Of a stretch of 4,569 nt of DNA, positions 482 through 4,569 are shown piece after piece. Numbering within the stretch: the first letter of the stretch is position 1; every line of letters starts with the position of its first letter. The notes beneath the pieces were generated by a model. The model was not told where the DNA came from and did no database searches. It saw nothing but the letters and a program-made list of their open reading frames with translations. The translations under genes were made by a program, and so were the position numbers. The DNA is taken from IMG/VR virus record IMGVR_UViG_2681813320_000017, one strand, 5' to 3'. The stretch comes from a virus (lineage: Duplodnaviria > Heunggongvirae > Uroviricota > Caudoviricetes).

Positions 482-614
482 TTTTTGGGACTCCTGGCTG
501 ATTAAGTATGTCGATAAGGCGTTTCCATCCGTCACGTAATTTACGGGTGATTCGTTCAAGTAAAGATTCGGAAGGGCAGCCAGCAACAGGCCACCCTGCA
601 ATGGCATATTGCAT
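450..614 (-). CDS. cIII: CIII, FtsH protease inhibitor that stabilises CII (54 aa)
   Basis: Internal Met of the 450..674 track [57 protein letters not shown] matches recalled lambda CIII. ATG at 612-614 preceded by AAGGAG at about 6 nt spacing; stop TAA at 450-452. Confidence 0.85.
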   Translation of the reverse strand: MQYAIAGWPVAGCPSESLLERITRKLRDGWKRLIDILNQPGVPKNGSNTYGYPD

Positions 615-762
615 GGTGTGCTCCTTATTTATACATAACGAAAACGCCTCGAGTGAAGCGTTATTGGTATGCATATAAAAAGGCCCTCACACTGGAGGGC
701 AAAGAAGATTTCCAATAATCAGAACAAGTCGGCTCCTGTTTGGTTACGAGCGACATTGCTCC

Positions 763-1275: not shown

Positions 1276-1333
1276 ATCTCACCTCAAATAAGTGGTTTGC
1301 TGCCTAATTTCATTTTCTGGCGACCAACACAAG

Positions 1334-1606
1334 TCACCTCGCCGTCAGTTGTTTGGATTTCCGGTAGCCTGCAGCGTAAATGGCTACGTTTGGAAGACAA
1401 GTTGAACCTTCATATTTTCTGGTCAACGTTGTCAGAGTTATAACTTCTGCTCTCATTGCTGGTTTGCGCTTGCATTGCAAGACCACTCGTGAAGGGGTTG
1501 GCCTGTGTAGCTTGTCGGAGCTAATCGACTCCTGACTTTGCAGGTTTGCGCGACGAGCTCTACGGCGAGAAGCTGCGGTGCCTTTAAATTCTGTTTTTCT
1601 GGACAT
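1334..1606 (-). CDS. N: N-like transcription antitermination protein (90 aa) with N-terminal arginine-rich motif
   Basis: The track ORF 1334..1678 has an internal ATG at 1604-1606 preceded by a strong SD (GGGAGGA, about 5 nt spacing). The product starts MSRKTEFKGTAASRRRARRANLQ..., an arginine-rich motif like the boxB-binding ARM of lambdoid N proteins (my recollection is that it is closest to the phage 21 type). It sits immediately downstream of a boxA/boxB nut site, in the position N occupies in lambda. Confidence 0.75.
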   Translation of the reverse strand: MSRKTEFKGTAASRRRARRANLQSQESISSDKLHRPTPSRVVLQCKRKPAMRAEVITLTTLTRKYEGSTCLPNVAIYAAGYRKSKQLTAR

Positions 1607-1704
1607 AGATTCCTCCCGAATAAACTTTGGCGATGCAATCTCGAAGCTCCTCCTGAGACGGTTGCTTCGGCATTGCATCCCACAGCTTATGTGGTTGGGT
1701 GATC

Positions 1705-1751
1705 TGGCTTTTCAGCCACGTAGTCGAGAGTTCGACGTTGTTTAAAGAGCC
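1705..1751 (-). promoter_or_regulatory. nutL: nutL-like site: boxA (GGCTCTTTAAACAACG, rc of 1736-1751) plus boxB hairpin (UGGCU-GAAA-AGCCA, rc of 1705-1718)
   Basis: On the minus strand, GCTCTTTAAACAACG matches the boxA consensus (GCTCTTTAACAA-like). It is followed after 17 nt by a perfect 5-bp stem with a GAAA loop. The same arrangement (GCTCTTT..AACAACG, then ..CTACGT.GCTGAAAAGC.AG hairpin) recurs downstream of cro at 4205-4250. A second small hairpin, GTCGA-ACTC-TCGAC, lies in the spacer. Confidence 0.6.
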
Positions 1752-1794: not shown

Positions 1795-1905
1795 ATAATA
1801 ATGAACTATTGGTTCGATATAATCAAGAACCATAAGTACGAAATTTTGTTGTTCATTCGTTTTCTCGAGATATGGTTTTGATATATAAGGTATTTTATTT
1901 TTGTA
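1795..1905 (-). promoter_or_regulatory. Probable pL/OL region (leftward early promoter and operators); exact hexamers uncertain
   Basis: AT-rich non-coding stretch upstream of nutL and N. Candidate minus-strand promoters: TTGATT (rc of 1821-1826) -17- CATTAT (rc of 1798-1803), or TTTACA further upstream. The motif AACCATAAGTACGAAA at 1828-1843 repeats the AACCATAA...GTACGAAAA motif seen at OR (3930-3957). Confidence 0.35.
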
Positions 1906-2056: not shown

Positions 2057-2740
2057 TTAGGGGGTTGAGACTCCAGAGAGCAATCCGTAGATTTTATATA
2101 CAGCAAATGCTAATGCTGGCAAGCCAAGGGCCCATTTGATTATATCAAGCTTAACATCACTAAGCTTACCTTCTAACTTTGCCTCTTGAACAGAAAGAGC
2201 TGCATCGATCTTTTTTGATTGGGAGTCAAGGGCACTCTCAATTCTACTCGATTGTATGTCCAGACGACTGTTGATTTGTTCGTGCTGAGTAACAACTAAA
2301 TGCTTCATCTCCTTTATATCTGAAGCCATTAGTTCACGCCATTTGGCCATATCAGCCTGCATTTTTGAGGCCACTGCATCCACTTCAGCTTTATTTGCCT
2401 TCAGAAGTGCCTGTATTTCGTTTCTGCTCAAATCGGACATTGCGGTTCCCTGTATAGGAGTTTCCTCGTACGGTGGGATAACATTAGATTGTCCTTTACA
2501 ATCGGCAACCCCTCCTTTATCTACGATTGTAGCAGTTAGCTGGGAATTGGTCGCATCATCCACCATGTTTTTTGGTGAATAAGAGGAAATAGGCGTAGAA
2601 AACAGATTACCTTTTGCTGTTTCCATGAACATCATGAAATCGCGAGTATTAACGTTATTCAGGGAAACTTGCAGTGGTTTAACAATACTTGATGTTTTGT
2701 AAGTAATAGTTAAATCACCTACTTCTTCCGGTTGTTGCAT
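2057..2740 (-). CDS. Hypothetical membrane-anchored coiled-coil protein (227 aa); distal gene of the cassette at the rexAB position
   Basis: ATG at 2738-2740 overlaps the upstream gene's stop (TAATG, translational coupling); stop TAA at 2057-2059. Ser/Thr/Asn-rich N-terminal about 100 aa; central region with heptad-like charged/hydrophobic periodicity (EIQALLKANKAEVDAVASKMQADMAKWRELMA...IDAALSVQEAKLEGKLSDVKLD); single C-terminal hydrophobic helix IIKWALGLPALAFAVYKIYGLL. Not similar to lambda RexA or RexB. Confidence 0.75.
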   Translation of the reverse strand: MQQPEEVGDLTITYKTSSIVKPLQVSLNNVNTRDFMMFMETAKGNLFSTPISSYSPKNMVDDATNSQLTATIVDKGGVADCKGQSNVIPPYEETPIQGTAMSDLSRNEIQALLKANKAEVDAVASKMQADMAKWRELMASDIKEMKHLVVTQHEQINSRLDIQSSRIESALDSQSKKIDAALSVQEAKLEGKLSDVKLDIIKWALGLPALAFAVYKIYGLLSGVSTP

Positions 2741-3060
2741 TACGACTTCGCTCCATTAGAGTTTTGTGCCTCTAATTGTTCGAAAAGAAGAACTATATTC
2801 TCTTGAAGAGCCTTTAGTTGTGCCATTGGCATTATCACAGTGCATTGCTGATTGAGTTCATTTACAGAGCCTATCTGCATATTCGCTCTACCTGGTTGAT
2901 CTGGTATATCATTTTGGGATAGTACCGCAGGTATTGACTTGTTTGCGATAAAATGTATACAAATGAGATTTTTTTCCGCTCCCGGTAGTGGAGCAAAACT
3001 AGCGAAGTCCGCATAGGTTTCAATATAATCCACAGATGGTTTAATTTTGACCGGTTCCAT
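2740..3060 (-). CDS. Hypothetical small protein (about 106 aa); proximal gene of the cassette at the rexAB position
   Basis: Track ORF 2740..3075 begins with TTG (3073-3075) then ATG (3070-3072), neither with an SD. The ATG at 3058-3060 (MEPVKIKPSVDYIETY...) is preceded by GAGAGG, so I place the start there; alternative starts at 3072 or 3075. Stop TAA at 2740-2742 overlaps the ORF227 ATG. No recognisable domain. Confidence 0.65.
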   Translation of the reverse strand: MEPVKIKPSVDYIETYADFASFAPLPGAEKNLICIHFIANKSIPAVLSQNDIPDQPGRANMQIGSVNELNQQCTVIMPMAQLKALQENIVLLFEQLEAQNSNGAKS

Positions 3061-3077
3061 AACGCCTCTCATCAAAT

Positions 3078-3183: not shown

Positions 3184-3891
3184 TCACAAACTTTTCAGCC
3201 ACTCCCTTGCCTCGATGTCATCCAGATGACGAGATTGCTTCAGAATACCAGCCACATACTCCACCTTTGCTACTTGATGATAAGGTAACGTTATTGGCCT
3301 GTGGTCCTGGTTGATGCTTGTAAATTGGTATTCTCCATCTCTGTCATAGCCAAGAATCTTGATCATGTTGTGTCCTTCAACGGTTCTGACAAACACCTCA
3401 TCCCCCGGGAATACTTTGGTGTTAGGCTCAATGAGTACATATTCTCCTGATTTTATTCTGGGCCACATGCTGTCTCCTTTCACACGAAGACCAAAGGCAT
3501 CTGGATCATCACTATAAATCTTGAGCCACCCATCGCGCTCTTCGGTCATCTCGATGGCACCATCAACACCAAGAATTGCCTCACCAACCACGCGCACTAA
3601 CCCTTTTTTTAATTTGCCAACAAATGAAAGAGTATCTTCATCATTCGCTCCATTTAACGAAGTGCCGTGCTGAAGCCAAACAACATCAACGTTTAGAAAT
3701 TTCGCAAGCGCATTCATTTTTTCCTGACGCGGTAAAGACTCAGCATTAAACCATTTGCTAACGCCTTTGGACGAAAGAGAAAGGGCACGGGCTATGGCCA
3801 TACCCCTACCATGTTCATCAAGACCAGCTTCTTTACAGGCTTGCGCTAGCCGCTGGGCGAATTCTTTGCGCACTTTTTCATTCTGAACCAT
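3184..3891 (-). CDS. cI: CI-type prophage repressor, N-terminal HTH DNA-binding domain plus C-terminal LexA-like S24 autopeptidase domain (235 aa)
   Basis: ATG at 3889-3891, stop TGA at 3184-3186. HTH-like segment GMAIARALSLSSKGVSKWFNAE; catalytic Ser in GDSMWP (Ser141) and Lys in HNMIKIL (Lys178), with 37-residue Ser-Lys spacing as in LexA. Divergent from cro across a 78-bp operator region. No SD before the ATG, consistent with a lambda-like leaderless pRM transcript. Confidence 0.9.
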   Translation of the reverse strand: MVQNEKVRKEFAQRLAQACKEAGLDEHGRGMAIARALSLSSKGVSKWFNAESLPRQEKMNALAKFLNVDVVWLQHGTSLNGANDEDTLSFVGKLKKGLVRVVGEAILGVDGAIEMTEERDGWLKIYSDDPDAFGLRVKGDSMWPRIKSGEYVLIEPNTKVFPGDEVFVRTVEGHNMIKILGYDRDGEYQFTSINQDHRPITLPYHQVAKVEYVAGILKQSRHLDDIEAREWLKSL

Positions 3892-3969
3892 GAGTACGAT
3901 ACTAAAGCACTTGCAAAAACTTTCAGTTCAACCATAATGCGTACTAAAAGTACGAAAAGGGATATTCCT
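3892..3969. promoter_or_regulatory. OR region: pR promoter (-35 TTGCAA 3911-3916, 16-nt spacer, -10 CATAAT 3933-3938), operator palindrome CGTACT-AAA-AGTACG (3940-3954), and probable pRM on the minus strand
   Basis: Divergent intergenic region between cI and cro. Near-consensus rightward promoter. A perfect 6-bp inverted repeat with 3-bp spacer lies right at the predicted pR start site. Further GTACG half-site-like motifs at 3893-3898 (AGTACGATACT). Minus-strand TAGTAT shortly upstream of the cI ATG is a candidate pRM -10. Confidence 0.7.
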
Positions 3970-4197
3970 ATGCAAAATCTTGATGAGCCGATTAAAGGTG
4001 TCGGCATCCCTGAAGTTGCGAAGGCTTGTGGAGTTAGCGAAAGGGCTGTCTATAAGTGGCTCAAAAACGGCTTCCTCCCTAAGACTGAGTTTTTTGGGAA
4101 AACGAAATACGCCTCAAAAATCGAAGAGATTTCTGGTGGCAAATATCAAGCAAGCGAATTGCTTGAAATAAGCAAAAAGAACCTTCTGGCAGCATAA
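3970..4197 (+). CDS. cro: Cro-like repressor / HTH DNA-binding protein (75 aa)
   Basis: ATG at 3970-3972 preceded by AAGGG at about 8 nt; stop TAA at 4195-4197. HTH-like segment IPEVAKACGVSERAVYKWLKNG. The track ORF starts at ATG 3937, but that codon lies inside the pR -10 hexamer and has no SD. First rightward gene, divergent from cI. Confidence 0.8.
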   Translation: MQNLDEPIKGVGIPEVAKACGVSERAVYKWLKNGFLPKTEFFGKTKYASKIEEISGGKYQASELLEISKKNLLAA

Positions 4198-4204
4198 GTA
4201 ACCC

Positions 4205-4250
4205 CGCTCTTTGTAACAACGGACATTCGTCCTACGTCGCTGAAAAGCGA
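4205..4250 (+). promoter_or_regulatory. nutR: nutR-like site: boxA (CGCTCTTTGTAACAACG, 4205-4221) plus boxB hairpin (TCGCT-GAAA-AGCGA, 4237-4250)
   Basis: Immediately downstream of the cro stop. boxA matches consensus and the nutL boxA. boxB is a perfect 5-bp stem with GAAA loop, sharing the core CTACGT.GCTGAAAAGC.AG with the nutL hairpin. Confidence 0.6.
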
Positions 4251-4279: not shown

Positions 4280-4297
4280 TATGCGTTTCCACGCATA
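4280..4297 (+). other. Hairpin TATGCGT-TTCC-ACGCATA between nutR and cII; possible tR1-associated structure
   Basis: 7-bp perfect stem with 4-nt loop at 4280-4297, followed by ACCTTTCAA (weak U-tract). It sits where lambda has the Rho-dependent tR1. Confidence 0.3.
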
Positions 4298-4335: not shown

Positions 4336-4569
4336 ATGGAACAAACAAGTTACAGCAAACTATCACAGCGCGACGTTGATCGCGCAGAAACAGATTTACT
4401 TATCAACCTGTCAACGCTTACCCAGCGCGGTCTGGCAAAGATGATTGGCTGTCATGAATCGAAGATAAGCAGAACGGACTGGAGATTTATTGCTTCGGTC
4501 TTGTGTGCTTTCGGAATGGCATCAGACATCAGTCCGATTAGCAGGGCTTTTAAGTATGCGCTTGATGAA
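4336..4569 (+). CDS. cII: CII-like transcriptional activator, N-terminal 78 codons; runs off the right edge of the window
   Basis: ATG at 4336-4338, open to the window end, so absent from the ORF track. Translation: MEQTSYSKLSQRDVDRAETDLLINLSTLTQRGLAKMIGCHESKISRTDWRFIASVLCAFGMASDISPISRAFKYALDE. The HTH followed by ...KISR..W resembles the lambda CII helix-turn-helix region (..VDKSQISRWKRDW..). Position after cro and nutR matches lambda gene order. Confidence 0.7.
   Translation, partial: MEQTSYSKLSQRDVDRAETDLLINLSTLTQRGLAKMIGCHESKISRTDWRFIASVLCAFGMASDISPISRAFKYALDE

Follow-up and report, generated by a model that had tools for sequence, protein, structure and literature searches.

The stretch of DNA analysed here, 4,569 bases long and hereafter called the window, comes from a lambdoid E. 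coli prophage, of which it is the region for immunity and early regulation. It carries two sites, at 1705–1751 on the minus strand and at 4205–4250 on the plus strand, that are very probably the nutL and nutR sites of N-dependent processive antitermination, with a GNRA-tetraloop boxB that has co-evolved with an ARM subtype of its own, RRR-x-RRA-x-LQ. This tetraloop N/nut is no new kind of system but belongs to a well-known one, of which it is a variant that is widespread and under-annotated. Its boxB lacks the loop feature that defines the lambda, the P22/H-19B and the phi21 types. A sequence-only reading of the window had proposed that the N/boxB pair may form a distinct specificity class, a proposal that is supported by comparison of the sequences of related loci.

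Organization of the window

The leftward genes on the minus strand are the 3' part of gam (1–262), kil (338–607), cIII (450–614), a 156-aa ORF (orf156, 805–1275) and N (90 aa, 1334–1606). The region at the start of cIII (569–627, minus strand) has a full-length match to Rfam RF01804 (88.5 bits, E = 2e-21), the lambda cIII thermoregulator. A terminator scan identified two intrinsic-terminator-like hairpins between orf156 and cIII (700–683 and 662–643, minus strand), which are candidate tL terminators by their position. Orf156 occupies the ea10/ssb position; it has a full-length match to phrog_1636 (unknown function) and none in Pfam. Note that phage AU5Stx1 has a hypothetical-protein CDS, also of 471 nt, immediately downstream of N. 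The window N gene lies directly downstream of nutL and of the predicted PL promoter (1798–1826, minus strand; TTGATT, 17-nt spacer, CATTAT), whose score of 8/12 is under the scan threshold. The PL transcript would start at about 1790 with AUCAGCAGGACGC, presumably in agreement with the start of the lambda pL transcript.

Two ORFs of 227 aa (2057–2740, minus strand; phrog_14825 of unknown function and a weak CCDC90-like Pfam match under the cut-off) and 111 aa (2740–3075, minus strand; no family match) abut between PL and cI, at the position of lambda rexAB, and are followed by a strong terminator-like hairpin (2051–2032). They are candidates for prophage-expressed exclusion or defence genes. 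The cI gene (3184–3891, minus strand) codes for a protein with Peptidase_S24 and HTH domains. On the plus strand, a PR promoter-like site (3911–3938; TTGCAA, 16-nt spacer, CATAAT) precedes a cro-like HTH gene of 75 aa (3970–4197) with HTH_17 and weaker HTH-family matches, all except two of which are below Pfam cut-offs. The interval between nutR and cII contains the hairpin UAUGCGU-UUCC-ACGCAUA (4280–4297, plus strand), homologous by alignment and fold to the H-19B nutR/tR1 region, a Rho-dependent terminator (PMC3526286). The 5' part of cII (4336–4569, plus strand; Pfam Phage_CII, E = 1.9e-26), the first gene downstream of tR1, runs past the window end.

The best single-place cover of the window by any record of the phage collections is about half, and the window is therefore a mosaic. 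Coverage reaches at least 80% in eleven complete E. coli chromosomes and 100% in the four best of them, in three aligned pieces with 98.9% identity.

Anatomy of nutL and nutR

The nutL site lies between the predicted PL start (~1790) and N (1606–1334), and nutR between cro (3970–4197) and cII (from 4336), starting 8 nt past the cro stop codon. The sites are on the transcribed strands of the PL–N and cro–tR1/cII intervals, the arrangement of lambdoid N/nut systems. Direct reading of the sequence located every element listed for them by the sequence-only reading, namely, at both sites, a boxA, a spacer of 15–17 nt ending in CTACG and a 5-bp boxB with a GAAA loop. In nutL (minus strand) boxA (1751–1736; DNA GGCTCTTTAAACAACG, RNA GGCUCUUUAAACAACG) is followed by a 17-nt spacer (1735–1719; TCGAACTCTCGACTACG) and by boxB UGGCU-GAAA-AGCCA (1718–1705), a 5-bp stem with a GNRA tetraloop and a U-A closing pair. 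In nutR (plus strand) boxA (4205–4221; DNA CGCTCTTTGTAACAACG, RNA CGCUCUUUGUAACAACG) precedes a 15-nt spacer (4222–4236; GACATTCGTCCTACG) and boxB UCGCU-GAAA-AGCGA (4237–4250). The nutL boxA matches the rrn-type consensus UGCUCUUUA (PMC2724277) and is conserved in about 80 related loci. The motif (C/U)GCUCUU(U)A is found 5' of boxB at both sites, as GGCUCUUUA in nutL and CGCUCUUUG in nutR.

The sequence between boxA and boxB had been taken for a plain spacer. The lengths and the CTACG end given for it were right, but each spacer is a conserved second hairpin, which had been overlooked. At nutL this hairpin is GUCGA-ACUC-UCGAC (1736–1723, minus strand), which is part of the MFE fold both when the leader is folded whole and when the site is folded alone; at nutR folding gives GGAC-AUUC-GUCC (4221–4232, plus strand). 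The difference in spacer length, 17 nt versus 15 nt, arises because each spacer forms its own hairpin. The CUACG linker (1719–1723, minus strand, between the nutL spacer hairpin and boxB; 4232–4236, plus strand, in nutR) provides with its C the final base of the spacer helix.

The 14-nt boxB sequences fold into the 5-bp stem with a 4-nt loop at −6.3 kcal/mol for nutL (z = −2.8) and −5.7 kcal/mol for nutR (z = −4.6). There is practically no likelihood that the hairpins are unrelated to N, being terminators, RNase III sites or chance palindromes. They are short, and on the plus strand the terminator scan did flag the sequence complementary to the nutL spacer hairpin, but neither is followed by a U-tract on its transcribed strand. 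Furthermore, the 19-nt core CTACGTSGCTGAAAAGCSA has exactly two occurrences in the window, one per strand, and had no match in 200 dinucleotide-preserving shuffles. The canonical positions of the sites, their homology to a site footprinted with N and their strict linkage to N genes also speak against an origin independent of N.

When the PL leader was folded whole from its predicted start, the spacer hairpin and boxB were both in the MFE structure (z of the whole-leader fold = −4.2). This bears on a long-range pairing in which the boxA 5' end, (G/C)GCU, would pair with the boxB 3' arm, AGC(C/G), and compete with the boxB hairpin as an RNA switch. Folded in isolation, the 56-nt nutL and nutR RNAs do have such pairing as their MFE structure, and the base preceding GCU, G in nutL and C in nutR, changes together with stem position 2. 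Nevertheless, the full PL leader MFE and the centroid of the nutR fold keep both local hairpins, and the pairing is broken in relatives by A in the Shigella 75/02 nutL, by T (U) in loci L070 and L075, and at both Citrobacter sites. The apparent co-variation is explained by the resemblance of the boxA consensus (C/U)GCUCUUU to the boxB 5' arm. The switch was rejected on these grounds and is very improbable, and the two sites are treated below as nut sites with two local hairpins. Note that a long stable hairpin is also present in the N leader (1620–1690, minus strand), between boxB and the N ribosome-binding site, in the place that the RNase III-processed stem has in the lambda N leader.

Covariation in related nut sites

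The exchange of G-C for C-G at stem position 2, which the sequence-only reading had pointed out between nutL and nutR and taken as internal evidence for functional hairpins, is real, and compensatory changes reach well past this pair of sites. Pairing was counted in 11 distinct tetraloop nut sites in a fixed-register alignment, since MAFFT, applied to the full set of nut sites, placed spacers and pentaloops out of register. The five boxB pairs are all formed in 11/11 sites (100% of cells paired). The outermost pair is UA, CG or AU and the second GC, CG or AU, two pairs having changes on both sides, while the inner three (G-C, C-G, U-A) are invariant in these sites. The observed covariation score was reached by 0/500 shuffles, and shifting the 3' partner by one to three columns lowered boxB pairing to 11–51%. 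The base 3' of the boxB 3' arm is G or A and faces the G of CUACG; the stem is therefore fixed at exactly 5 bp.

CUACG is invariant in all nut sites examined, of the tetraloop and of the pentaloop class. The spacer hairpin is kept with four unrelated stems (GUCGA/UCGAC, GGAC/GUCC, GGCC/GGCC and GAUUCA/UGAAUC), and its first G-C pair always links ACAA(C/U)G to CUACG. Relatives of nutL have a hairpin with other stems at the same spacer position, and the nutR spacer hairpin changes an A-U to a C-G pair in the Citrobacter and Kluyvera relatives. One further plus-strand match in the window, at 1384 inside N (CTACG followed by GUUUG-GAAGA-CAAGU), was discarded as a chance occurrence: it has G-U pairs, is antisense to N and lacks a nut context.

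The N protein and its ARM

The 90-aa product of the window N gene, whose ribosome-binding site GGGAGG is 5 nt upstream of the ATG, matches Pfam PF25694 N_peptide over residues 1–90 (E = 1.6e-31) and phrog_271 “anti-termination protein N-like”. It was aligned with H-19B-type, g341c and phi21-type N proteins. The ARM spans about residues 9–25 (GTAASRRRARRANLQSQ; also given as GTAASRRRARRANLQ). Two ARM subtypes are distinguished in the alignment, in proteins that are otherwise homologous. Subtype 1, (S/G)RRR(A/E/D)(R/H)RA(N/A/E)LQ, is found in the window, in the Stx1-converting phage Morioka, in YYZ-2008, 2851, the PA-series and Shigella 75/02 Stx, as well as in a Citrobacter prophage, in the Salmonella phages g341c/epsilon34 and in Kluyvera. 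Subtype 2, RSRRRERLKAKALANG, is present in H-19B, 933W, HK97, mEp234 and SPN9CC. An RNA-motif scan widened the ARM repertoire with sequences such as NGSSAARRRERRAHLQSE and KGSSAARRRARRAELQSQ.

The ARM core of the tetraloop class, RRRxRRAxxQ, agrees with the N ARM at 9/19 positions in lambda, 10/19 in phi21, 7/19 in P22 and 6/19 in H-19B, counts for which the lambda and P22 sequences were entered by hand. Where lambda has W18, the tetraloop-class ARM lacks a Trp. A PDB sequence search with the window N returned no match.

Just past the N stop codon (1284–1343, minus strand) the window has an out-of-frame stretch encoding ...EVTCVGRQKMKLGSKPLI*. Its identity is 100% with the C-terminus that the phi21-type N of phages DE3, HK544 and Dewey has in frame and 65% with that of lambda N, and a copy also follows N in 933W and HK97. 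The stretch looks like a mosaic scar left where a phi21-type N gene was replaced.

Comparison with characterized N/nut systems

An experimentally footprinted site for comparison is H-19B nutR, whose sequence was rebuilt from the complements of the antisense oligos RS662-665. It reads CGCUAUUUUCACAAU-GGACAUUCGUCC-UACG-UCGCU-GACAA-AGCGA (assembled: CAUAAGUAACACCGCUAUUUUCACAAUGGACAUUCGUCCUACGUCGCUGACAAAGCGAGUCCCAAUAUAUCUGACCAACUAAGG) and is identical to nutR of the Stx1 phage AU5Stx1, whose N has the ARM 12-RSRRRER-18. The comparison with H-19B that the sequence-only reading had advised revealed about 150 nt of homology between the nutR sites of H-19B and the window, the alignment with H-19B-type nutR beginning at the end of cro, passing tR1 and reaching the start of cII. 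Both window sites have the layout with two hairpins that has been reported for H-19B nutR. The H-19B/933W/HK97-type sites share with the window the boxA-like end ACAA(C/U)G, the spacer hairpin, CUACG and a 5-bp boxB closed by U-A; H-19B nutR also has in common with the window nutR the spacer hairpin GGACAUUCGUCC, the stem UCGCU/AGCGA and the downstream tR1 region. The differences lie in the boxA region (GCUCUUUGUAACAAC in the window versus GCUAUUU-UCACAAU), in the loop (GA-AA versus GACAA) and in three substitutions downstream of boxB. Given this 1-nt loop indel in the nutR alignment, the window site is an H-19B-type two-hairpin nut site minus the loop C; both window sites have GAAA instead of the H-19B GACAA.

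The N proteins of H-19B and the window are homologous, with 40% identity, a common MxR(K/R)TxFKG start and a common CLPNVA(I/L)YAAGYRKSKQLTAR end. They differ in length (127 aa versus 90 aa) and in the ARM, RSRRRERLKAKALANG in H-19B and SRRRARRANLQ in the window. The H-19B sequence 12-RSRRRER-18 followed by LKAKALANG is replaced in the window by SRRRARRANLQSQ. The boxA also differs: that of H-19B nutR is CGCUAUUUU and the H-19B-type nutL has no recognisable boxA, while the window boxA is near-consensus at both sites. Neely and Friedman are said to have described in 2000 both the dyad symmetry of the H-19B spacer and a reduced Nus requirement.

The pentaloop read by lambda N is a GNRNA that adopts the fold of a GNRA tetraloop (PMC12027372). 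The lambda boxB (GAAAA or GAAGA, with loop base 4 extruded) resembles that of the window in its 5-bp stem, U-A closing pair, G...A loop and GNRA fold, and the two systems also share a boxA 5' of boxB and the ARM core RRRxRRAxxQ. In contrast, the window has neither the fifth loop base nor its extrusion, the lambda spacer is single-stranded where that of the window forms a hairpin, and the C-terminal parts of the N proteins are unrelated. The extruded lambda loop base was reportedly tied by Legault et al. in 1998 and Chattopadhyay et al. in 1995 to NusA-dependent complex formation.

In the P22 gp24/boxB complex (GACAA; PDB 1A4T) the C of the loop is turned outward, in contact with the peptide (PMC12550061). 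The P22 boxB, with the stem GCGCU/AGCGC, has the U-A closing pair and GNRA fold of the window boxB, and the N proteins have homologous C-terminal tails; the ARMs differ (7/19 positions in common). The looped-out C is missing from the window boxB, so that this peptide contact is impossible with the window tetraloop. The phi21 N/boxB (CUAACC hexaloop; PDB 1NYB) likewise combines an ARM peptide with a boxB hairpin of GNRA-like fold, and its ARM is similar to that of the window (GTAKSRYKARRAEL versus GTAASRRRARRANL, 10/19 positions). The phi21-type boxB, as in VT1-Sakai nutL, differs by its longer stem and hexaloop.

The tetraloop is shared by epsilon34/g341c, whose boxB is CGGCU-GAAA-AGCCG in nutL and UCGCU-GAAA-AGCGA in nutR and whose ARM is of the subtype GSAAGRRRERRAALQN. 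The window has the combination found in these phages, an RRR-x-RRA-x-LQ ARM with a GNRA-tetraloop boxB at both nut sites. They differ from the window by an N of 120 aa with an HK97-like body, by nut sites without consensus boxA, by the nutL spacer hairpin GAUUCA-GUGA-UGAAUC and by their hosts, which are Salmonella (Kluyvera for a related locus) and not E. coli. The tetraloop class was partly anticipated in the epsilon34 genome paper, where Villafane et al. (2008) reasoned that epsilon34 N “has a novel BoxB specificity” on account of its diverged N-terminal 27 residues. In the GenBank record of g341c the 14-nt feature “Putative NutR (similar to NutR Epsilon34)” is exactly boxB. The nutL sites of the Salmonella, Kluyvera and H-19B-type loci (L006, L090, L091 and L004/L005), and g341c nutR, have no recognisable boxA (e.g., GGUGAACAUACAACG). 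As boxA is near-consensus at both sites of the E. coli class with a 90-aa N and absent or degenerate in the Salmonella and Kluyvera members, NusB/NusE dependence may differ within one boxB class.

Matching of ARM subtype and boxB loop

The correspondence between ARM and loop was examined in 178 loci besides the window, sampled by their N gene, the hairpin after CUACG being read without loop constraint. A search of viral contigs with N gave only 97–100% identical N genes; diversity was obtained from genome contigs, from a g341c query and from the RNA-motif scan. NutR was scorable in 146 loci, of which 105 combine an RRR[EAD][RH]RA (RRRxRRAxLQ) ARM with GAAA and 41 an RRRERLK(AK) ARM with GACAA. 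Mixed pairing of ARM and loop was found in none of these 146 loci with readable N and nutR. Loci with the tetraloop-type ARM have GAAA or GCAA at all readable nut sites, nutL and nutR alike, and some phages have GCAA at both, which gives the loop consensus G(A/C)AA. Loci with the H-19B-type ARM have GACAA throughout, the one exception being the aberrant SPN9CC nutL. Note that the sample consists mostly of near-identical E. coli prophages and contains few independent lineages, roughly 16–25 ARM variants and five or six stem variants.

The match of nutL to the ARM could reflect linkage, since the ARM codons are only about 100–200 nt downstream, and nutR is the sole independent witness. It is 1.35 to 3.1 kb away from N across the loci, with 27 distinct cro-end signatures in the tetraloop class and 9 in the pentaloop class. 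The two are parted by the most mosaic stretch of the genome, and the agreement of nutR with the ARM therefore argues for selection and not just linkage. The g341c/SPN9CC pair offers, at the level of sequence, the cleanest natural comparison: the N body is nearly the same, the nutR flanks are identical, and what sets the two apart is confined to the ARM and to the boxB loop together with its closing pair.

These data bear on the possibility that the nut sites are genuine and loop size is neutral, the N family taking any GNRA-like boxB and the 4-nt/5-nt difference being a hitch-hiking polymorphism. One loop base is indeed the sole boxB difference from H-19B nutR, with identical stem, linker and spacer hairpin, and lambda N recognises the GNRA fold and not the extruded base (PMC12027372). 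A neutral loop is nonetheless unlikely in view of the lack of mixed pairing in the 146 loci despite frequent immunity-region exchange between N and nutR, of the confinement of the g341c/SPN9CC nutR difference to boxB, where it tracks the ARM, and of the peptide contact made by the looped-out C of P22 (PMC12550061). Co-evolution of loop and ARM is the preferred reading.

In a reverse scan, viral contigs were searched for CTACGNNGCTGNAAAGC, which gave 120 loci. Among the 37 loci with two full hairpins the tetraloop-type ARM is present in 35, and in the other 2 N is lost at the contig end. No locus of this viral contig scan has a pentaloop-type ARM. Forty-eight matches without hairpin were set aside as chance occurrences, the ACAA(C/U)G context being missing too.

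The aberrant boxB of SPN9CC nutL (about 5878–5895, plus strand) can be drawn as GCUC-CGUCAAC-GAGC or as GCUCC-GUCAA-CGAGC with a C-C mismatch, and is common to seven loci. The nutR of this phage is UCGCU-GACAA-GGCGA, with a U-G closing pair.

Proposed mechanism of antitermination

The PL and PR transcripts would carry boxA, the spacer hairpin, CUACG and a 5-bp boxB with a GNRA tetraloop, GAAA in the window and GCAA in some relatives. From the homologous systems of lambda and H-19B, the N ARM is expected to bind boxB on the nascent RNA. Together with NusG, with NusA at the spacer and with NusB/NusE at boxA, N would then render RNA polymerase termination-resistant, and the complex would stay on the polymerase. 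Leftward transcription would read past the candidate tL terminators (643–700) into cIII, kil and gam, and rightward transcription past tR1 (hairpin 4280–4297) into cII and the replication genes. The tetraloop may be viewed as the GACAA loop of H-19B/P22 minus the looped-out C or, equally, as the lambda GAAAA loop minus the extruded base.

It is conceivable, at somewhat less than even chances, that the pair of tetraloop boxB and RRRxRRAxLQ ARM represents one more orthogonal N/nut specificity, with discrimination resting on one nucleotide of the loop. For lambda N peptide a boxB with a GAAA loop is a good ligand, and P22 N takes many GNRA-like loops; discrimination by 4-nt versus 5-nt loop size is therefore not guaranteed. 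If such discrimination holds, the one-nt difference would insulate the early circuits of co-resident lambdoid prophages, for example where one EHEC strain harbours Stx phages of the tetraloop class and of the H-19B class. It would also follow that the extruded loop base, which makes the peptide contact in P22, is dispensable for full antitermination. In lambda this base is reported to matter for NusA-dependent complex formation.

N/boxB is the textbook model of arginine-rich peptide-RNA recognition and a much-used tethering tool. The structurally characterized pairs of lambda, P22 and phi21 have 5- or 6-nt loops that mimic GNRA by base extrusion (PMC12027372, PMC12550061). The interest of the present class lies in the strict one-nucleotide co-variation of ARM and loop and in the light that it may cast on the role of the extruded base, of whose purpose a natural plain tetraloop is a natural test. 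The class possibly adds one more orthogonal peptide-RNA pair. For annotation it provides the rule that the ARM subtype predicts the boxB loop size.

Distribution and annotation

The N/nut module is found in 759–767 of 5,426 complete E. coli genomes (about 14%) and in the public phages Stx1-converting phage AP005153, Stx2 II, YYZ-2008, 2851 and the PA-series; a related tetraloop module is present in the Salmonella phages epsilon34 and g341c. The description of the boxB as unusual in the sequence-only reading thus holds relative to lambda, P22 and phi21 but not among sequenced prophages, where it is common. Several of the carriers are Shiga-toxin phages, in which N-dependent read-through feeds toxin expression. 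In RefSeq the features at the top matches to the module are all called “hypothetical protein”, some genomes using “transcriptional antitermination N peptide”. Rfam has no nut or boxB family, and the cIII thermometer is its sole match in the window. A search of the accessible literature found no paper describing or testing a natural tetraloop boxB. Short contigs assigned to Segatella copri (L088, L094; MAG) and Xanthomonas pisi (L092) carry an E. coli-type N/nut with up to 98% aa identity in N, and most likely reflect mis-binning or contamination.
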